Shown here piece by piece: positions 21,300 through 50,286 of a stretch of DNA of 64,000 bases. The stretch is from Bigelowiella natans CCMP2755 (Eukaryota > Protista > Cercozoa): assembly GCA_000320545.1 (NCBI GenBank), contig ADNK01001596.1:62001-126000 (forward strand). Direction: 5' to 3'. Below the pieces are notes generated by a model, which was not told the DNA's origin, searched no databases, and saw only the letters and a program-made list of their open reading frames with translations. A program made the position numbers and the translations under genes. The number at the start of each line of letters is the position of its first letter. Positions within the stretch are counted from its first letter, which is position 1.

Positions 21300-22212
21300 T
21301 CATCCATTCTCCATACAAGCACTAGACTCCCTGGTCTTGTTCTTCAAGCAAAGACCAGCGAGAACGTAAAGGGATGCTAATGTGGGCTCAGATTCATTCC
21401 TCAACATTTGATACGATTTCCCATTGAATCCGTCGAGTGAACCAAATGTTTTCAGCAGGATTTGCGACGTGCTGTTCTCGATGCCAATGCCCTTTTCGAG
21501 CATAAGGGAGTGCAAATCTTTCCCAACGTCTATTTTCTGTCGCATTAATAAGCGACGAAGGATTATATTGTATGTCTCCGAAGAGGCTTGGAGTTTCCAC
21601 TGATCCATGCGATTTAATACATCGACAGCATTCTCGAGTCGATTGGCGTTCACATAGGCCAGAAGAATGTCCATGTACATACACTGAGAAAGACATCGTT
21701 TCAGATATAAATCTTACTGTTATTTATTAGGAACCGGTGGTTCAGATTCCAATAAACGAAAAGGAGGTAATATTGATGAATCGTGTGTATCTTTTTCAAC
21801 CAATGGGTAGATTTTTCTACTTTCTCTCTCATACGATTAGAGAAGATGAGGGTAGTCATTATTTATCATTATTACTCTTGGTGATAGTAGCAGTGGGGTG
21901 ATATGAATGGTGCCCTACCAGTGAAGGTTTCAGGTTTTGTTCGTGCAGCCGCATTAGGACACGTTCTGCCCCTTCGAAGTCGACCAACGACATGTTTCTT
22001 AATGGAAATTTCCATGAAGCAACCATTGGCATCCGCAGGTAGCTTTTGATGAGAACGACGTAGTGCAGCCTTTTTGGATGCTGCAATCTCGAGAATCTTT
22101 CTTGCATCAAGGAGCAGTTTTGCCCCCTCCTCAGCATTTCCTTGAGTAGTGTTTCCCAGTCTTCATCCCTCAATTTGTTTGGATCTTCGTCCGCCCTGAT
22201 AGTTGGTCGCAG

Positions 22213-22249
<37 letters not shown>

Positions 22250-22593
22250 GGATGTTTCAAGGTAAAACACTCCCTCGATGATAGCTAACAGCACAACATC
22301 ACAAGAACTACTCACAGTGATTCTGCAACATAGTGCTTTCTGTATTCAATTCTGATGGAGCCCAGCCGCGGTATTCTTCTCATGAGACTGTAATCGTTCC
22401 TCCAGCTGTGCCGATTCCATATGCTGATCGTCGGGGATTTCTTCTTCATTGCCAGCGACACCCCAGTAATCTGATATCGTAGTAGGTCAATTGGATTGTG
22501 AGTAGATGCAAGTGTATTTTGTCGCGAGGAGGATGCGGTTTTGCCTTTACTATCTGATAACTTGGTAAGAACTCCACGCACACACGACTCTCT

Positions 22594-22658
<65 letters not shown>

Positions 22659-23719
22659 CCTCTCTCTCTTATCTCTTTCGCACTCAAAATTACCTCAGAT
22701 GCGCACAAGCTCTCATTCTTCAGTAGGGTACCATTTGTACACGTAAATACGATATCTTTCCAGCCCTCAGCAAGATTTGCGGTATTAATACTTCGCAGCC
22801 GCCAACGTCCGCCGCGACAATTTGAACGATCCTCCCAGCATGGGGCTATGCCTTTACGCATGAGGAACCTGAAGTACAAGTTGCTGCTGTCTCAGACACT
22901 TAGACGGCTTTATTGAAATAGAGAACAAATTGCAACCAGAAGCCGTCGCCCTTGGTGAAGTTTATTCTATGGAATGTGTTGATGATATCTTGTCTTGAGC
23001 GTGCCTCCTCGAGCTTCTCATAGCTCCCTAAATCCCACCTAATATTTGACGGTGAGAGGTTAATCGATGGTTACATAATAATCATAATAATCAGGTAATT
23101 ATGTACCACATCGAGATTCATTCCACCCACATCATGATCACTTTCATAATCAATGAAATTCATGAAATTCTGCCGTTTCGGGGCCAAATCGTAGGTTGTG
23201 CTGATTAATACCCTGCCACCCCCCACCACAACGAACCTGTTTGATGTCGCCGAATGATACCACCACACCCAGGTGTATCTGAAGCGACTTCTGTCTCTCT
23301 CTCTATGGCGCGAGCTAATCCTGGCCATTGGGCATCGAGAAGACGAAGTTCGAGGTTGCTTGTCGAGCTGAGTTGCATCATTGGCGGCCATTAGCAATGG
23401 AAAAAGCGGTAATGGGGCCCAGTAAAAAGCTGACAGAAACAAACTTGCGTTGTGCAGTATGGGAAGATAAAAGTCGAAGCCCCACCCAAAAATCAAAATC
23501 TATGCTTATATTGTTCCATTCGCTTACGTGGCGAGTGGGATTGTTGTCTTTGCCTCTTCGTGCTTCTTTCTTAACGGTAGAGGAAAGTAGACGTGACTCC
23601 CCCCTCCCACACAGGACCAGAGCGAGAAGAATTGTCGTTAGACACATAGCTATAACCGTCCACTTACGACGACAGATTTTCCTCGGCCTGGGCCCATAGC
23701 AAGGGGCGGAATAAATCAT
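21300..23719 (-). CDS. eIF4E-domain / pentatricopeptide-repeat fusion protein with signal-peptide-like leader
   Basis: eIF4E motifs are YTWVWWYH, FLMRKGIAPCWED...N.RGGRW and ITGVSLAM....ISIWN. These splice in phase (CT|GTGAGT ... CAG|G) to PPR-like helical pairs HYVVLIKSYLR, YMDILLAYVNANRLENAVDVLNRMDQWKLQAS and TYNIILRRLLMRQKIDVGKDLHSLMLEKGI. Alternative start at 23391. Confidence 0.8.
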
Positions 23720-24176
23720 CCGGAAACGAGGAGGGGGTTAGTGCTTCGTCATGATCCTTTCTTCGTTTCGATTTTGGCCACTCTTCTGTCTGATAAGAGC
23801 AAACCCACAACACTTGAAACACGCAATATTGAATTTAGGCCTAATAATAAGCGGAAAATACCTAAACCTCTCTTTCCAGAGTTGAATTTGTTTGAGAGAA
23901 TGAGTACGTAACATCCAAGCAACATCCAACCCCTGGCACTAATTTGCTCCGGTTTAACCTACCAGAAGCTTTCTTTCTGAACTGGGTAAAAATCGATGTC
24001 GTTCTATATAAATCTCCTATATTTATATAAGTTTTGTCCGTCGCTGCAGCGCAACAGAGCTCAGGAAGAAAGGGCTTTCTGTGAGGCAGCGAGATTGAGG
24101 AGGTTCCATTTTCCTGGGTCTTGGATTTCGTTACGTATTGCTAAATTCTAACCCTTTATTGATTGAATAGGCTCAA

Positions 24177-24248
24177 ATGTCGTACTCGGGACAAAAAACT
24201 AAACAGGTTTGTGAAGTCTTTTACAACATTACAACACAAATAGAAGGC

Positions 24249-24299
<51 letters not shown>

Positions 24300-24866
24300 G
24301 GTGGGTGCGTTATGTTCTCGTACAAAATCATAAAGAAACTATTGGAACACGTACCAAGTAAAATTTGTCTTTAACAGGAAGGGAAAGACTACGAAGCTTC
24401 TCGATCATATGCTCAATCATCTTCATCACACTTCATGAACCAGCAGAGTATGGAACTCGATGCCTCTCAGTTAAAACTTGGCAAGGAATTTCATGAAGCA
24501 CATTGCTTATGGAATGCAGAGGTAGCTGTGATTCTGGATACTGTGATTAAAAGAGAAACGCTAAGTGATAGGAATAAAGACTTGGTAAAGACGACATTAG
24601 ACTATGTAAATAAGTTCAAGTATTTCCCCACGAAAGAAATGGCTAAGAAGGCAAGGGAGTATGTTGAAGATAATACTAAGCCCGATAGGAAAGGAGGTAA
24701 ACCAGGTATTGACATCGAACAATTTGAAGTCGCTGAAATGGCGAACACAGGAATATTCCAGGCTGAGGAAGCCAGAGAACTTCTGCCAACCGTAAAGGAA
24801 AAATTTGAGGGTAGAGAGGATGAACTTGAAGATTTCCTTTCCGGTCTCACAGAATATGTGGGTTGA
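24177..24866 (+). CDS. RPB4: RNA polymerase II subunit RPB4
   Basis: Motifs ELDASQLKLGKEF..AHCLWNAEVAVIL, KTTLDYVNKF and FEVAEMANTG...AEEARELLPTV. One intron at ~24207-24377. Confidence 0.9.
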
Positions 24867-26104: not shown

Positions 26105-27287
26105 CTAGCCGTATGCAATGTCCGGATTAGGATTTGGGTAAGAGTGTGGATAAGAATTCGGATTCGGCAGTTGCTCAGACTGCCTGAATTTGTAGATGTC
26201 CTCCGCAATTTGCTCATCATCAAGTTGCGAAAATTCACCTATAACTGAAATCTTACTTTCATACTCGGACATCAGCACCTCCGTATCCTTCCCGAAAAAA
26301 AGGTATTTAACTATTTCGTAAATCTCTCTTCGAACAGTAGGATTGTAGAAGAAGAACAAGGCGTCTAACAAACCAAACGTACTCGAGGAGATAGCATGAA
26401 GCAACTGGAAAGTGTACGGTGGTGTAATAAAGATTGCGATGAAGCGATTTAGTGTTGGCGCCAGTAGACCCCAAATGAGAATTAAGGGGTAGAACTTGAG
26501 CAACTCAAAAGGCCCAGAGATGATTTTCCTCTCTTGTCCCGCTCCGTCAAAATTGCGCAGTTTTTGCCATATCGTGTAGTATATATACGTACAGTAGAAC
26601 ACATATATCCAGCTTAATCCATAGAGCGAAAATATGCGGACCATAATATACATGTCACTCTCCTTTCCTTCTTTGACCCAGCACCAATTCCCGGCGTCTC
26701 CATAAGCATTGAACCACATCGGTAACGACGACGGGACCACAGGAAACAGTTGGCATAATACAAAGAATATCCTCATCATGTAGGAATGGTCGATTGGTTC
26801 TCCAGAACTGATGCTGTTTGCGACTACACGATGCAGCGTGTATGCAGTGGCGCAGGCCCACAACATCGCGCTTTGCAAACCTAGAATGTTGAATAGGATG
26901 CTCAGTGTTTATCATGCTTGCTAAACCAGTACGACGAAACTGTTAGAAATTATCAAACCGTAGTTGATGAAGAATGCTTGCGCTTGGCACCTGAAGCTGT
27001 CCTCTCCATACTGGGCCATATCTCCGATTCCAAACACACAGTAGAATATGAAGTCGTTCAGCAATATGAAGAAAACCATTTGGAATGCCATTGTTGGCCG
27101 TAATTTTTCCAGTCCAAAGAAGCAAATCATTGCGAGCAAGACTGCACTGGCACTAATCCAGGATCCAATCCTGGTGAAGATTACCTACAGAGCAGCATTG
27201 GTGAGTTTTATTTTCAGTTCCATATTCAACGGAAACCATTTGTAATCAGACCAGAGCATGATGTTCTTCGGCCACAGACTGCACCAT
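26105..27287 (-). CDS. cAMP-receptor-like (CAR/GCR1 type) 7-TM GPCR
   Basis: Three exons giving RCQAQAFFINYG|LQSAMLWACATAYTL, YGDAGNWCWV, LKFYPLILIWGLLAPTLNR and FGLLDALFFFYNPTVR. Seven hydrophobic segments. Confidence 0.85.
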
Positions 27288-30850: not shown

Positions 30851-33374
30851 CTAACTAAATCGAAAAGAAGAACCCAGCCGAGAAAGAATTGGATAGTGGT
30901 TGGGACTTTGATTCGGTGAGGGTGCGTACCATTGCCTGAGGTAATAACATCAAACTATGGAGTCAGGAGAGAGCATTCCTTCGGGAAATTATTAGTTATT
31001 ATTAGGATGTCGACTTACAAGCACTGTCGCTGGACCCCATTGATTTGTTCTTCGGATTCGCTTATCATTCCATACCGCTCTTTAAGGTTATCAAGTGCGT
31101 CTTCCATCACCTGTGAGGTGTATGAACAGAAGGGAGAGGAAGGGGAGGGGGCGGCAATGAGGGCTTAGAGATCATGGCATGAAAAGTAAGAGCAAGAACC
31201 ACGACTCATCATCATCATCACCACCATCATCATAATCGTATTCCCTCTTGCTCTTACCTGAGGATTACTCTGATAGCCCATGATGCTCTTTAAATGTTCT
31301 ACCGGCACCGGCATATATTGCTTTGAACCGAATGGACCATCACTCACGCTTTGCTCCAGCTCTTCCCGAATCCTAGCTGTGAGCCTGTTGTGCAGACGTA
31401 AAAAATATGTGAAATTGTGTACGTTATGCTTTCTTCAACACAACACTTTTACTACCCGGCATTTCTTCAACCTTTTCCCAACACGAAGAAATGCACGCAC
31501 CAGTGTTACATAATAACACTGTTGTCGCGAAATGATAACACATAAAATCTCACCTGGCAATTGTCCATCGGTGCCACAGCTTTCGCAGGTAGATCGATGC
31601 AACGCCCATTGCTGGAGCAACATACTTCCAGTTCGCCAGTGCGAATGAGAGGAGCGGCCACACGCATTTATTCAAAATATAGCACCTCCACGAATACCGT
31701 CGATAACCCATGCTAGAAGTATACAAATTTCCGCGATTCTTTATGCCAGTTTTGGGATCGCTCACTATCTCGCGCAGCACCTTATCTTGTCGCGTCCTGA
31801 GATCCCTGAGATCCAGACCCTTGCTCCTAACTGCTTCTCCGTATTGCTCCTCCAGCTTCGTAGCTATCTGTGAAGGGTTGAGCCCTGGCGGTGTCGACGT
31901 CCCAGAGCATTCTCGCCTTGCTTGAGCTTCCTCGATCGTTTGTATGATAAAGGGTTTGAGCTCCCTTAGCACCCAGATGGGCCGGCACTTTGAAGACTTT
32001 TTCTCATACCACGGTTGGCAATGTGTAAACTCTCCCATTTGGCAATATCCATTGTCCGGGCATGGGATGCAAAGAGTCTTGGATTGCGATGCATACTTGC
32101 CGGTGTCGCAGTATTTCAAAAATGCTGGGTGGCTGACATAGCGATAGACTCTCTGGGCACATAGGAACGCAACCAGAAAAATCAGAATACTACCCACTCC
32201 AGCGACCCCGGATGAGCTGAAGCCTTGCTTTGTGGAGGATATGAGAGACTGAGTCGCTTTCATTGTGGAGTTGAGCACTGCTAAAGCAAGTCTGATGGGA
32301 GCAAGCAGTGCCCACACCACCAATCGTATGAAAGCAAGAGGCAACTTAATAATATCTTTCAATGCATTCCCAGATCCAAGTCGAGGGGGAGGGGGAGGAG
32401 GAGTAAGGGATTGCGCGGGTGATGATGACGATGAAAATGATGGTCCTCTTGCTGCTGGGGTGCTCTTCTTACTCTCCTGCTGTTTCACTGCATCATCTTC
32501 AGGAACCCCGAAAGCTTCTATGTAAGCCTAATAACGTGTAGTAGAGAATAGAGTTATCAATAAGCTCATTCAACAAGTGCGGATGATGAACATGATAATC
32601 ATTGTGATGCATCGGTAGAGGCAGTGGTAGCAGTTGTTGTTGTAGTAGCACTCGCAGGTTTTATAAATATCACATAAATTTTGAAGATAAATACTCCGAT
32701 GGCGGGGAGGAGGAAAGGAGGGAGGGGGGAAGAGAGATCTAGTCCTACCTCAATAAGTTGTTGCCTTCGCTGGTAACTTTTCGTTTGAATTCCCACCATT
32801 TTCAGCTGCTTTCTCATTTCTTTAACAGTAAGGCCCTTCATTGAAGTCGGCGTCGTATGCTTCTTCACACCTTGCCTCTTGCTGTAACTTCCCACATGGC
32901 TTTCTTTCTCCTTTTTTGCACCCACAGTTGTTGTGTGATAATTATCCGCGTGTATGTGCTTGACATCCTGTTTGCCCTTTCTAACGACGTACGCATTGTC
33001 GTCGTGTTCTTGTTCTCCGAGCTCTTCCAGTTCTCCATCGAGTATTGGCGCTAACTCCTCTTCACCTACCCAACCCATATGCTCCTCCTCCTCTACCTCA
33101 TCTTCCCCCTTCACGTCTTCGTCTTTCACCAAAAAATCAGCCAATTCAGGCTGGGCCCGGCGTCGTGGCGCTGTTCGAGGAAGTCATAACATAATTTTAG
33201 TCATTGGCAACAACTTCGGAGTTATCAAAAACAAATCGCAAAAAAATGCAGTTTACCGGTCTTTCGCGCACTCTGGAACACGTTATCTCCTGAATCCTTA
33301 CGTTCCCATATTGCGTTCATCGCGGACTTCCTCCTTCCACGCTTTGGCCTTTTTGTAGGGCGAGGGTCTGTCAT
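30851..33374 (-). CDS. MAN1/Src1/Heh-like inner nuclear membrane protein (HeH/LEM + 2 TM + MSC domain)
   Basis: HeH-like LTVKEMRKQLKMVGI...RQQLIEAY, then a TM, a luminal YCDTG...CIPCPDNGYC..G...CQPWY...C segment, a second TM, and C-terminal PVPVEHLK...QCLQW. N-terminal basic NLS KRPKRGRRK. Confidence 0.8.
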
Positions 33375-37771: not shown

Positions 37772-38449
37772 GGTAACTGCAACAACTCTTCCGGTTGAAC
37801 GGATCCCCCCCCCCCCTTAAATCGAAGCTTTGGAAAAATCCCTTTTTCCGCCGTCCTGCTGAGGTCCTGGGTGCGAGGTAAGCGGATTCGAAACTAAATT
37901 CCTCTGTCGTACAGTTTATTTTTAGAATGCGACATCAGAATCTCCATGTCTCACATGAAATTCCAACTGTTCACCTTATGCCACAGCTGCATAGTTGTCG
38001 CAGGGGATAATTCGATTGCATTGTTTCTTCTTCATTCATGAGCACTTCTACCACGAGAAATGCCACGTGCCCGTCGGAAAAAGGACGATAGAAATCCAAA
38101 AATCCAGCGGAGAACATCGTACGGGTTGCATCGATGGAGGCCTTCATCAAGGCTCGCCGTTGTGCTCGGGATAGCTTTTGGCGGGAAGCGAGTATGGTAC
38201 ATCTTTCGGATGGTCTGTATGATGTTGCGACGGGTCGTATAGGTTGTCGCAGCCCGTAATTAGGGCTCTTTTTGCGAGGAAGAAAGATCATGTAATATCA
38301 TCCCCGTGCTGTCTCATTAACCGGTAGCGACGAACCGAACCACTCGGGGTAGGAGCATAAGGGCAACCTTTCCCTCCTGTCCTCCTGAATTGGCAGGACT
38401 CCTTCGTGGATATAAGGAGAGGGGTACCTACCTTCCTTTCGTAATAAAT

Positions 38450-39803
38450 ATGGAGCAGAAGGAGGACCTTCGGGAGCCACTTGCCCGGGGGCTCTGGAAA
38501 TTAGCGAGGAGATGTACGGACGCGGAATGGAAGCTGAAGCGACGATCTCATCTAGTGAGGGCTATAGTCACGATATCTCTCCACAAAGAGCCCTTGCGTT
38601 CGCTTCGTCAGGTTGGCCAGTTATACAAAATCGGCAGTGTGGTCTTAGAGCAGCTCCAGGCGCTCCTTAAGACACGTCACTGCAGCAACGGTAGGCCTCG
38701 TCGTAGTGGCCCTTTGTTGAATCTTGAACCCCTCAACGAGACGCAGTTTTGCAGTGCTGCATTAGCTATACTAGTCTGTCTTTATGAATGGAAATCGAGA
38801 GAAATCGAGCGAGATCTGTGTTCTTCTTCCTCCTCCTCGAAGACTCGTCACGAGTATCTTTTGGCACTGGAAGAACTCTGTGACGGCACTCTCCAAAAAC
38901 GCTTGCCGGGGGAGCAGGGAGGCCTTCTCAACGTATCTAAACATGTCAATGGAGCTCCCTGTGGATGCTTAGATCAGCTGAAGACCATGGCAACAGGGAC
39001 TTGGGATAGCGGGGGTGAGAAGCTCATCAAGCTGCGGAAGAGAAACAAGAAAACTGTGTTGGAACTCCTCCCGGCAGGAGAAAGAATAGCGTCGCGACTT
39101 GTCTCTGAGCGACGGAGAGTTATGCAGAGAAAACGGGAAGGAATGGCCACAGGCGTAAACGAAGGAGTGCTGAAGATTGCGTCACAGAATCGATTTGGCC
39201 CTCTTATTGATTTCAAAGCCCCCCCCCCTTCCTCGTCGTCGACCACCTCTTTTGTGAAGTTGCTCGTCGACACGCGTGAGGGGGGTGGAGAGGACCACCA
39301 TCTTTACGAAATATCGGCGAAGCTGAAGAGGATGAGGGTTAGCTTTGAGACCCGACGCTTGCCAACTGGGCTAGGTGACTACGTGTTTGTTGTGAAATCC
39401 CGTCGTGGCGCTGCAGCAGCAGGCAGGGGAAAAGAAGAAGAAGAGGAGGAGGAGGAGGAGCTTGTCCCCATCATCATTGAACGGAAGACGCCGGTTGGTA
39501 CATGTAAACTCTCCCATCATTTTCATCTGCCAAATCATTATTTTCATAAAGCAATCCATCATCATCATCATCGTTGTCGTCGTCGTCGTCGTCATAGTTG
39601 TCACCATTTTGAATCGTTGTTATTTCCTCATTCAACCACCACCAAAGGTGGATCTTTCACAAGGCCTAATGGACGGGCGCTTCGAGCGGCAGGCCGCAGG
39701 TGCAGTCAAAAGCACCATTCACTGTGAACACCACCACCGGTAGCAGGATCTCATTATCTTGTACTCGGCGAGGGCTGACTACGTGATGATGAGGAGATGT
39801 CAA

Positions 39804-44639: not shown

Positions 44640-46443
44640 TTATATCGTTACTTCTTCATCCTCGTGTGTACTTTCATAAAGATCTCTATAAGTTCCCCTC
44701 TCTATTTTCCCAAGTCTTAAGTCACCCCCGTCATTCTGTTCTTCTTTTTCAATTTTATTGTCTGCCTCTACTTTATCCCAACTTTTACGTACGCATCCAA
44801 AAAGCACGAGAAGAAGAAAGACTACATGGAAACTGAACCAAATTGTTAAAAAGGCTGAGAAGCAACCTCGGTCGACTCTTTGTGAAAGCTCTTCACTTGT
44901 TGCATCTCTCACGACAACACTTTCAACGGCGACAAATGCAAGAACCAGATTTGTATTGAGAATGTACACATCAACAAATGTTAAGTAGGAAATCAAAGGA
45001 ATGTGGTCTGAGACTGCAAACTTAAAGGCGACCGAAGTAAGAAGCAGAGCAACAACTAAGTTTATGCGGTCGGCTATATTTTCTGGATCAATCAGGAAAG
45101 CAGTAGAAGCCAAGGTTGTTATAACAAACAACGGTAGTATCACGTTGAGAAAGTAATAAAAAGTAAGTCTCTGAACTCTAGCTTTGAAAACTAGCTTTCC
45201 GTTGTCTCCAGAAATGTCCATTAAAGAATGCAACATTTGAAATTCAGAACTTACTCTGGGACGGAGTTTTATGTCAATACATCTTCTTGAAACATGTTTT
45301 GAGAGCTTCCATCTCCTCGGTGGTGCTGGTATAAATTGATAGTCTCCACTATTAACTAGGATGAAAATATGTAAAAGTTGGCGATCAAATGGAAACCTAT
45401 GAAGTTCCATCTGCTCCTCTAATGTGCCGTGGTGTTTGTAATGAACATGGACTATCCCAGTAACCGGATTGAAGAACTCTTCGCGTTCAACAAAGGTTAC
45501 AGAACCTTCTAAAGCGTTACCAAACAGTTTTTCGGGATCTACGGGTAGTGAGGAGTCTTCTGGGAATACAATAGGAAAATCGCCTAGGACATTGTCGTTC
45601 TTTGATTTCAATTTGACCTTCTTCTCCCGTATCAAATTTGGCTCATGCCAGAAAATACTTGTCTGGCAAGAAATATTAAAATTCTCGTTCTGGCAACTTA
45701 TTTGGCTTACCTCTACCTCGAACGTTAAGTACGCATTTGCTCGCTGTGTTACTTTGATGCCAGCCTTTTTCATTCCTTTCAAAATACTTTCAAACTCCTT
45801 GCAGCGTACCTTTGGATCTCGATCTGCATCTTCCACGAAATAGTGATGTGTCCCATCACTGAGAGTGTCGCGAAAATTGTCGTATTCCTTAATTGGTCTC
45901 GATTTACCACCTGCATTATTAAGATTATTCCGGAAGGTTATCTATGTTTGCTGGCATATGCAAGTTTAATGTTAAACCCCTTATATTGTGTTGCTTTTCT
46001 TAGTAATATTACGTACCTTCTAAGATCTTTCTGATATCATCCGGAAGTTTGCTCTCATTTGTGTTGACAGGATCCCAGTGGAGATAGAAATTAGAGTCTG
46101 CATTATTATATTCTATTCTCCAACATTGAACTCGAATTCCAAGGTCTAATTCGCCTCTACTGTTGGTAATGCTTCCTATATCTTCATCTCTAGTAAAAAG
46201 AATGCTTTCCAGTCGACGTAAATGGCCAAAATTTTTAATTCCAAGGCTTCGAAGATCCTCTCGATTCATGAACGCTAGATCTTTCCCGGATACATCATTT
46301 TCCCTATCATTTTATTCATCGTACTCATGGTAACCCCCACACAAATTTCAATACACATGTCACCTAAATTTCTTGTCATAGTCTTCCTTTGGAAATTGTT
46401 GCTTTATTAAATTGGACACATCCAAACAACTCATTTGCTTCAT
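44640..46443 (-). CDS. Cys-less pentameric ligand-gated ion channel with N-terminal SAM domain
   Basis: Pro-loop MELHRFPFDRQ, M1 YYFLNVILP, M2 DRINLVVALLLTSVAF, M2-M3 IPLISYLTFVD and an M4 segment. Upstream exons give YDKKFRENDVSGKDLAFMNREDLRSLGIKNFGHLRRL (SAM). Confidence 0.85.
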
Positions 46444-48167: not shown

Positions 48168-49757
48168 TTAACCGCAACATCCAACAGCCTCGACATGACT
48201 CTCTGCAGGAGAAGAATTCCTGGAAACAACATCTCGGCTAGTGAGTTTTGGAGACTTAATTATGGTTGTAGCTATTCCGGACTCGAGGTTAAAGTCCAGA
48301 TTATGTGAAACTAGAATAGGTCTCAGATTGAGACTTGGCTTCCAATGAATCTGTGCCGTGATCTCGAATGTCCCCCATCCTATTCGCGAGAGCTCGAAGT
48401 TTTTGGACTCTGCTGCAGAGACTGTGACTTTGTTGGGTGAGAATGTAGGGTGGAGGAAGTATGTGACTTTATCTGCCACTTGGTTAAGCTTCGCTTCGCC
48501 TGCAGCCGATTTAAGAAAGAGCGTCCATTTGAAGTTAGAGTTTCCAGCCCTTGACACGGTGTTGCCAAAGCGGATTCCGGACTTGAGAATAGCAATAGCA
48601 GCTTTTTCTTCAGTAGTTTGCTGTGCTTCCTTTCTCTTCTTTTTTGCCGCCTCCTCAACAGCCTCTTGGCGTGCTTTCGCCTCTGCTTTGAGCTTCTTGT
48701 TGGAGTCCTCCAAGCGTTTCGCAGCCTGAACGTAGTAAGAACTAACGTATTTCGGGATCTTATGGATGGGGACAGAATCTCTTGGTATCCACACAGGCAC
48801 AGGATCTATTGAAATGCCAAGCTGCTCCATAAGAGCCTCGAATACGGGATCTGTCTTACCCCATATGCGCAGGTCGCATTTCCTATCGTCCGGTGTCTGT
48901 TGGAGGTTGATAATGACGGTTCTCTTTGCGAGAAAGGGGAAGTGGGTAATATGGCGTAGCGACATCGAGGTCCCCGCAACGATAACAAGGTCCGCCTTCC
49001 TACAATGCTTGTCAGCCTCGTTCCAATCCATATCGTCCAGGCACTCGCCGAAGTTGATGTGAGTGTCCTTCGTACCTACCCGCTCGTCGCGTGTACCGAT
49101 CAGGTGGTTGTCCCTGTAGTCTCCATCAGATCCCGTGTTATTAGAGATGGGGCGTCCAGTGTATGAGGAAGGCGGCTTGCTTTTGCACCTTTGGCACTGG
49201 CCAATGTGGTGATCATGCACATGAATTCGCGAGCGTCGGGTGTAGTAGTTGCGTTCGAAGTCATAGCCGCAGCCTGTGCACCTCTCAGCATAAACGCTAC
49301 CGTGAAGGTTGCAAATTTGTGTATGTGCCTTCAGGCCCGACTTTCTATGAATTCCATCAAGGTTTGTTGTCACAATGTAATGCGCGATCTTCTTACGAAT
49401 GAGTGTGGACATAGCCATGTGGGTGGGAGTCGGTCGCGCGTCGATCATCGGGACGGACTTTTGTTTGCCTTTCTTCTCACTTTCTGCAAGAAGTTTATTA
49501 AGCTCAGCCCTATCCTTCGGCGAAATGACGTTCCGTGCCTTGAGTCTTTGAAGCTCGCGAATGCGACTCATCGTCCAAGCCCCAGTGGGCCCACGGTAAT
49601 CTCCAATTCCTGCTGAAGTTGATACTCCAGCCCCCGTGTAAAAGACAGTGTATTTGGATTTGCGAACCCAGTTCGCAAGTGTCTTGATCTTGGCCTCTTG
49701 AGAGGATGATTGTTCCTGGATCTCTTGGATCCTGTCTGCATCTACTGTTGATGCCAT
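48168..49757 (-). CDS. Class IV (SIRT6/7-like) sirtuin fused to a C-terminal YEATS domain (single exon)
   Basis: Sirtuin motifs TGAGVSTSAGIGDYRGPTGAWT, PTPTHMA, NLHG, CxxC...CxxC, GTSM and INLQQTPDD. YEATS motifs GN...WTLFL...KVTYFLHPTF...FELSRIGWGTFEI. Confidence 0.92.
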   Translation of the reverse strand: MASTVDADRIQEIQEQSSSQEAKIKTLANWVRKSKYTVFYTGAGVSTSAGIGDYRGPTGAWTMSRIRELQRLKARNVISPKDRAELNKLLAESEKKGKQKSVPMIDARPTPTHMAMSTLIRKKIAHYIVTTNLDGIHRKSGLKAHTQICNLHGSVYAERCTGCGYDFERNYYTRRSRIHVHDHHIGQCQRCKSKPPSSYTGRPISNNTGSDGDYRDNHLIGTRDERVGTKDTHINFGECLDDMDWNEADKHCRKADLVIVAGTSMSLRHITHFPFLAKRTVIINLQQTPDDRKCDLRIWGKTDPVFEALMEQLGISIDPVPVWIPRDSVPIHKIPKYVSSYYVQAAKRLEDSNKKLKAEAKARQEAVEEAAKKKRKEAQQTTEEKAAIAILKSGIRFGNTVSRAGNSNFKWTLFLKSAAGEAKLNQVADKVTYFLHPTFSPNKVTVSAAESKNFELSRIGWGTFEITAQIHWKPSLNLRPILVSHNLDFNLESGIATTIIKSPKLTSRDVVSRNSSPAESHVEAVGCCG

Positions 49758-50286
49758 GGTTGCGTTTGGTTTTTGATACGAGTAGCTTTTGGTTCTTGTC
49801 AGGTAGTTGTCTCTCCTCGGACCAGATTTGTTCAACGTCATGTCATTTTTTAGCAAGAAACAATCGATGATCATTGTCGCATGTAAGGATACCAGCCAAT
49901 TTCACTACTCTAAGATAGGCTTCGACCTCTCCAGGAAATTTCTGAGAGGAGAAATATCTGTTTTGTTCCTACGACATGATTATCATCTTGTCGCTTGGTC
50001 TCCAAATCCTTACATTAGATTTTTCCTTCTCCTCCTTCCCCGTCATAATTCCATGGGCTGGGAATGTTCCCAAAATGTCGTCACAAACTGGATTGCATTC
50101 GGTCCCATTTTGTGGGCAAACGCGATGTCGCAATTTCAAAAAGCAGGGAAGATATTAGTTAGAGACTAAAGGAGAAATTTTTGAAAACCCCCTTGAACTT
50201 CTTGCATTCCCCGGCGATAGTCTTTGTCGTAGGTGATGTGACGAAAGATCGATCTTCTGTCGACGTCTCCTGCATCCATCCACCCA

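Follow-up and report, generated by a model that had tools for sequence, protein, structure and literature searches.

A gene on the minus strand of a 64,000-nucleotide stretch of the Bigelowiella natans CCMP2755 genome (contig ADNK01001596.1, positions 62,001 to 126,000; hereafter, the window, in whose coordinates all positions are given) encodes a cap-binding eIF4E domain fused to pentatricopeptide repeats (PPR) behind a signal-like leader. B. natans, a chlorarachniophyte, has a nucleomorph and a plastid bounded by four membranes. From its N-terminus, the product comprises a basic n-region, a hydrophobic segment, an Arg/Ser-rich stretch, the eIF4E domain, and about four PPR repeats (Table 1). 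Judging from sequence, we put at roughly 55% the probability that this eIF4E-PPR fusion is imported into the periplastid compartment and there binds capped nucleomorph mRNA without eIF4G, and the gene likely supplies the cap-binding factor missing from the nucleomorph gene list.

A preliminary description of this DNA, made from its letters alone, had proposed a bipartite targeting leader for the protein and, provided that the host was a nucleomorph-bearing alga, as it proves to be, a host-encoded controller of endosymbiont translation. That proposal is partly supported, by the exon-intron structure, the host, the conserved leader, and the absence of eif4E from nucleomorph gene lists; control of endosymbiont translation by the host would be a plausible role.

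Gene structure and transcripts

Splicing of the upstream exon to the eIF4E frame, as first observed in the preliminary description, is confirmed by assembled transcripts. The joint 23367/23528 is present in seven of seven contig runs (X1, X3, X5, X7, X9, X13, and X16), which represent six studies and possibly a single strain; the RNA label of these public runs is a guess, and canonical splice joints show that they are RNA. Contig joints and a check of the coding sequence (CDS) bear out the exon, GTAAGC donor, acceptor, phase 0, and branch-like site (CTAAT, 27 nt from the acceptor) that had been read from the letters. The intron expected at about 23527-23370 is real, but its 3' coordinate was 2 nt off (23368). 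Five further introns were resolved.

Transcripts begin ahead of the leader and not downstream of 23530, where a transcription start would have spoken for a leaderless protein: in the seven runs, contig 5' ends, which fix no exact start site, lie at 23729-23764, upstream of ATG 23719. An eighth run, of raw reads (X22), says nothing on exon 1 or the start site, its 125 placed reads coming almost entirely from the 3' end. The stop of a short upstream open reading frame (ORF) leaves ATG 23719 as the first usable in-frame start. This ORF lies inside five of the seven contigs (those with a 5' end at 23757 or 23764) and could damp translation of the leader-bearing form.

Domains of the fusion and its relatives

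An exhaustive protein search returned 1,377 matches at E values up to 0.001, the best 150 of which were listed. Among the matches listed, a C-terminal fragment from B. longifila (P0006) is 85% identical to the B. natans protein (P0002), and P0007 (35% identity) is the sole protein that spans both domains. Its full form, P0156 (389 aa, from an MMETSP transcriptome; hereafter, the orthologue), keeps the same fusion and cap residues and is without W73. Word-index searches with P0001 and P0007, of limited lengths, each gave the query only, and two metagenome scans, in which intron-rich genes are poorly seen, gave no match.

The eIF4E domain scores 62.5 bits against Pfam IF4E (PF01652) in the B. 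natans protein and 61.3 bits in the orthologue (cut-off 28.7). Its predicted model has a pLDDT mostly above 90 across aa 91-240, and the top Foldseek matches of that model are all eIF4Es (E 8.6e-11). In a column survey (columns mapped via the B. natans eIF4E P0014, with human numbering from PMC3388326), equivalents of the cap-stacking residues W56 and W102 and of E103 are kept in both fusions, and those of W43, W46, W113, W130, and W166 are also kept in the B. natans protein. As to the basic residues for cap phosphates (R112, R157, K162), an Arg precedes W113 in both fusions and the R157/K162 region differs between them. The S/T-V-x-x-F-W73 motif for eIF4G and 4E-BP is gone, with V69 replaced by R/M, F72 by I/L, and W73 by I/G (B. 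natans/orthologue); the domain is accordingly not assigned to class I (prototypical) eIF4E. A non-aromatic residue at W73 disrupts binding of both eIF4G and 4E-BP (PMC3388326).

Pfam PPR_2 scores 37.6 bits in the B. natans protein, 41.5 bits in the B. longifila fragment, and 25.7 bits, below the cut-off of 30, in the orthologue. A structure search aligned 142 residues to the PPR protein 4ozs (VIA Z 12.7, a value under about 13 being common for repeat proteins; root-mean-square deviation 5.2), and the closest folds are organellar PPR proteins. A search for an eIF4G-like HEAT fold in this C-terminal part gave chiefly PPR proteins in its leading rows, with no MIF4G entry among the 50 shown. The residues at PPR code positions 5/35 are M/S and N/E (M/T and N/E in the orthologue); M/S and N/E are pairs that we take to lie outside the common code. 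With about four repeats and non-standard code residues, the solenoid cannot define an extended RNA site; it more likely acts broadly, or chooses messages by their first few bases, than controls a single gene.

The N-terminal leader

The signal peptide was called from hydropathy rules and (-3,-1) cleavage sites. An N-terminal extension of at least 15 aa is carried by 58 of the 124 eIF4E-domain proteins gathered in these searches, and the two fusions rank first and second among them in hydrophobicity: over 15 residues the h-region of the B. natans protein reaches 2.87 and the segment of the orthologue 1.91, with 1.71 for the next. As a check on chance, a comparable basic-then-hydrophobic start was found in 3 of the 329 ATG-started, 64-codon open stretches of the window, the eIF4E-PPR gene included. 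The predicted model places a helix over aa 18-37, cleavage sites lie after aa 33-42, and a second ATG (Met25, at 23647) falls within the h-region. The orthologue has a leader of its own, in which six Lys/Arg and no Asp/Glu among aa 1-21 precede the hydrophobic segment, and it has (-3,-1) sites too.

Given these hydropathy ranks and the rarity of such starts in the window, the signal-like segment is a predicted feature conserved between the fusions, and the long Arg/Ser-rich stretch is not. Of the bipartite leader, the first part, a predicted hydrophobic signal, is kept in an orthologue of 35% identity; of the second, the orthologue has only about 14-18 residues (two acidic, none basic) between signal and domain. 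In B. natans, aa 38-92 are disordered and Arg/Ser-rich, aa 38-93 are basic with 21% Ser/Thr, and 17 basic residues stand against 6 acidic ones in the transit-like stretch. The flanks of the hydrophobic segment bear +6 before and -2 after in the orthologue, charges that by the positive-inside rule predict a lumenal C-terminus, the acidic stretch after the h-region favouring C-terminal entry into the lumen. With the C-terminus in the lumen of the endoplasmic reticulum (ER), the only capped mRNA downstream would be that of the nucleomorph in the periplastid space.

The nucleomorph gene gap and daily expression

The nucleomorph gene list for B. natans and Lotharella oceanica holds eif1A, eif2G, eif4A, and eif6 and lacks eif4E and eif4G (PMC4035089, supplement 1), and for the nucleomorph of L. 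vacuolata a gene for a capping enzyme, mce, has been named (PMC4494063). In the cryptophyte nucleomorph, which encodes no eIF4G, eIF4E has lost V69/W73, and how nucleomorph mRNA is initiated with so few factors is an open question (PMC3388326). Among the listed rows of B. natans Table S1 in PMC5635652, 24 are labelled translation initiation factor; two KEGG-labelled eIF4Es are 'no-signal', one eIF4A is predicted for the periplastid compartment, and JGI 140887 (P0014) does not appear.

The eIF4E-PPR gene is represented in the same work by JGI Bigna1 62536, a protein named as B. natans in the same 90% cluster, whose transcript is labelled diurnal (subcluster A2-1, counts 241 to 935, false discovery rate 0.003; PMC5635652). 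The gene was easy to miss because this model is identical to the last 200 residues of P0002, is labelled mitochondrial ('mt'), and bears no annotation. Subcluster A2-1 peaks at night's end. Of the nucleomorph genes, 283 of 285 (~99%) are constitutive, and any daily control of them must therefore be post-transcriptional. The eIF4E-PPR gene is a candidate for both gaps, the missing nucleomorph eIF4E and the missing daily control.

A natural eIF4E-PPR fusion would be a new architecture wherever it is localised. In the literature, we found no report of such a fusion or of a periplastid eIF4E in chlorarachniophytes, although Curtis et al. 2012 and some supplements may list it; neither eIF4E nor pentatricopeptide occurs in the main text of PMC3542566. 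Host-encoded periplastid translation factors were already known, and what appears new is the architecture and its fit to the nucleomorph gene gap.

A proposed mechanism

We propose that the signal peptide would bring the fusion into the ER and that the transit-like stretch would move it across the second plastid membrane, after which it would stay in the periplastid space. There, W56/W102/E103 would grip m7G caps. Lacking the W73 surface, the protein would make no use of eIF4G, and its short PPR solenoid would hold cap-proximal RNA or a partner protein, so that the fusion would either replace the cap-binding step of initiation or protect caps. Through the pre-dawn transcript peak, the host could each day act on nucleomorph messages of near-constant level. 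A fuller version, in which a giant-virus-type eIF4E had its eIF4G site removed, a PPR solenoid replaced the scaffold or selects messages, the fusion is made before dawn, and the almost wholly constitutive nucleomorph genes would thereby come under host control in translation, is tentative, and we hold it to be possible rather than probable.

Evidence against periplastid import and rival explanations

A number of observations weigh against the periplastid reading. Were a periplastid eIF4E essential, all chlorarachniophytes would be expected to have it. The idea of such a factor is weakened by the carriers: among the matches listed there are only three (B. natans, the B. longifila fragment, and one MMETSP transcriptome), and no fusion was found for Amorphochlora amoebiformis, whose proteins are in the collection, although clustering at 50% identity may hide members. 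The strongly basic transit-like stretch of B. natans (net +11) fits the plastid stroma as well. Hirakawa et al., in 2010, reportedly found that an acidic transit-like peptide with an Asp/Lys tail marks periplastid proteins, and by this rule the B. natans stretch looks more stromal than periplastidial. Neither fusion has an Asp/Lys-rich C-terminal tail, the last 30 aa holding three basic and three acidic residues in B. natans and seven basic and two acidic in the orthologue; such a retention tail is reported for EFL and is not known to be universal. Within the domain, the Lys/Arg found two residues before W166 in 133 of 138 subfamily rows (the true position of the survey column labelled K/R162) is Ser in the B. 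natans protein. W73 is kept by only 68 of 138 other subfamily rows, and a loss so common is weak evidence of adaptation. Another signal-bearing eIF4E may lie beyond the Table S1 rows listed, cluster A consists mostly of plastid genes, including those of chlorophyll synthesis, and the timing of A2-1 is not specific, because a no-signal eIF6 shares the cluster (PMC5635652).

The rival that survives best, which we nonetheless judge unlikely, is that the fusion traverses each of the four membranes to reach the stroma and serves there as a PPR RNA factor, its eIF4E fold reused for uncapped 5' ends or nucleotides. This would suit the 17 basic and 6 acidic residues of the transit-like stretch, the lack of an Asp/Lys tail, the organellar nearest folds of the PPR domain, and a co-expression cluster common to chlorophyll-synthesis genes. 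PPR proteins usually work in the plastid stroma and in mitochondria. Plastid mRNAs, however, are uncapped, and W56/W102/E103 are kept across 65% divergence all the same; moreover, the short spacer of the orthologue, acidic and without a basic residue, would make a poor stromal transit peptide.

Also unlikely, and ranked after import into the stroma, is a cap-binding protein that faces the cytosol and is fixed at the ER, the outer plastid membrane, or mitochondria by its hydrophobic segment, which would stay uncleaved; there it would localise or repress host mRNAs without eIF4G. Host capped mRNA is plentiful, it has been proposed that eIF4Es lacking W73 inhibit cap-dependent translation (PMC3388326), and the flanks of the B. 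natans helix are alike in charge (+6 before, +7/-2 after), which leaves its topology ambiguous. The orthologue's flanks, in contrast, predict a lumenal C-terminus, and the cleavage sites in both proteins speak against an anchor.

We discount as improbable that the protein works in the cytosol or mitochondrion, perhaps beside a plastid form, as a product without the leader or with a later start. Such a product would begin at Met78 or, with intron 1 retained, at ATG 23391, which sits inside the intron and exists only upon retention. In its favour are an X1 contig that retains the intron (at depth 52, the spliced form being at 85), the database proteins P0005 and P0016, the position of Met78 ahead of an Arg-rich stretch, and dual plastid/mitochondrion targeting via alternative starts known in the group (PMC4494062). 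Against it, six of the seven contig runs hold the spliced form alone, X1 shows depth over other introns too, an ORF of 89-113 codons would precede ATG 23391 in the retained form, Met is absent from the orthologue between positions 1 and 86, and the published 'mt' label rests on the model of the last 200 aa.

Origin of the eIF4E domain

The best matches of the eIF4E domain are mostly metagenomic and are intermingled in the tree with IMG/VR viral-contig eIF4Es, many of them from giant-virus metagenome-assembled genomes; scores run up to 88 bits, whereas the best eIF4E in PDB scores 36 (the databases differ in size). Feature matches in the atlas, all below 0.9, are PPR-like, and one structure row, a lead only, is a mostly viral eIF4E cluster. 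A viral scan with P0009 gave nothing, and scans with P0013 and P0014 gave 15 and 5 loci.

In a 140-row tree the fusion pair (95) is joined with viral rows in a weakly supported group (80). In a 40-row subset, picked after inspecting the larger tree, the pair (100/99) has no supported sister, and a grouping of the fusions with the host paralogues P0014/P0076 is not rejected (p-AU 0.27; 40 of 140 rows). P0014 and its A. amoebiformis orthologue P0076 fall in the same domain set as the fusions. We claim no donor, because green-algal and named canonical eIF4Es are absent from these trees. The subfamily to which the domain belongs also includes giant-virus members, and a viral and a host-paralogue origin would both be compatible with the data.

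P0014 (JGI Bigna1 140887) and P0076/P0173 (A. amoebiformis) are themselves leaderless eIF4Es with an intact W73 motif, 31-38% identical to viral-contig eIF4Es. Viruses of chlorarachniophytes encode eIF4E (PMC13196603), and the viral-like nucleomorph polymerase discussed below is a precedent; neither counts as evidence on where the eIF4E-PPR gene came from.

Table 1. Features of the eIF4E-PPR gene in window coordinates.
Feature	Position	Strand	Description
Whole CDS	21300..23719	minus	471 aa, seven exons; contig splice joints and letter-for-letter match to database protein P0002
CDS exons	23719-23528, 23367-23237, 23038-22937, 22868-22694, 22470-22316, 22195-21919, 21683-21300	minus	
Upstream ORF	23738..23752	minus	4 codons, in frame with main ATG
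Exon 1	23528..23764	minus	5' untranslated region and codons 1-64, ATG 23719; contig 5' ends, CDS check
Intron 1	23368..23527	minus	160 nt, GT-AG (GTAAGC...ACTCAG), phase 0; contig joints
Basic n-region	23663..23719	minus	aa 1-19; 6 K/R, 0 D/E
Hydrophobic h-region	23609..23662	minus	aa 20-37; predicted to act as signal peptide or signal anchor
Transit-peptide-like stretch, part 1	23528..23608	minus	aa 38-64; low pLDDT
Transit-peptide-like stretch, part 2	23284..23367	minus	aa 65-92; Arg/Ser-rich, contains Met78
eIF4E domain	22327..23283	minus	aa 93 to about 248, exons 2-5; Pfam, Foldseek, column survey
PPR solenoid	21444..22158	minus	aa about 265-424, exons 6-7; about four helical repeats, of which two are clear 35-residue units

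Neighbouring genes

An RPB4-like gene (24068-24866, plus strand; Pfam RNA_pol_Rpb4) and the eIF4E-PPR gene are arranged head-to-head. Only about 300 nt separate the contig 5' ends of the two (24068 and 23764), which suggests a shared bidirectional promoter. Elsewhere in the window, a long single open frame on the minus strand (48168-49901) carries a SIR2 and then a YEATS domain, a sirtuin fused to an acyl-lysine reader, and a single open frame of 433 aa (44640-45941, minus) resembles pentameric ligand-gated ion channels (Neur_chan_memb 27.1 bits, just under cut-off). Weak matches link an open frame at 26105-26908 (minus) to the Dictyostelium cAMP receptor family (GPCR-like), exons at 31550-32527 (minus) to a Man1/Src1-like inner nuclear membrane protein (Pfam), and exons at 38321-39727 (plus) to an ERCC4-domain (Mus81-like) nuclease (Pfam).

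Relation to known systems

From work by Gile and Keeling in 2008 and Hirakawa et al. in 2010, nucleus-encoded, periplastid-targeted EFL and eIF1 are said to occur in chlorarachniophytes. Like these, the eIF4E-PPR fusion would be a eukaryotic translation factor that the host encodes, that carries a bipartite leader (predicted here), and that fills a nucleomorph gene gap; unlike them, it joins a cap-binding domain to PPR repeats, and in B. natans its transit-like stretch is basic and the Asp/Lys tail is missing. The nucleomorph eIF4E of Guillardia theta would serve the same type of compartment, and, in a nucleomorph without an eIF4G gene, it too has lost V69/W73 (PMC3388326); it is nucleomorph-encoded, truncated, and single-domain, whereas the B. 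natans fusion is nuclear, leader-bearing, and fused.

Giant-virus-type eIF4Es (IMG/VR loci L001-L020; mimivirus vIF4E, bioRxiv 10.1101/2025.09.30.678621) and P0014 provide the best domain matches, and W73 is often lost in this subfamily, yet a leader as hydrophobic is seen in none of the 122 remaining database eIF4E-domain proteins. B. natans also has a viral-like DNA polymerase delta that serves the nucleomorph (PMC5635652) and is likewise nucleus-encoded, diurnal, and giant-virus-related; GFP showed where that protein resides and phylogeny where it belongs, whereas service to the nucleomorph by the fusion is predicted. With P-class PPR proteins, finally, the fusion shares 35-residue helical repeats and the PPR fold, and it differs from them in having only about four repeats, with M/S and N/E as its 5/35 code residues.
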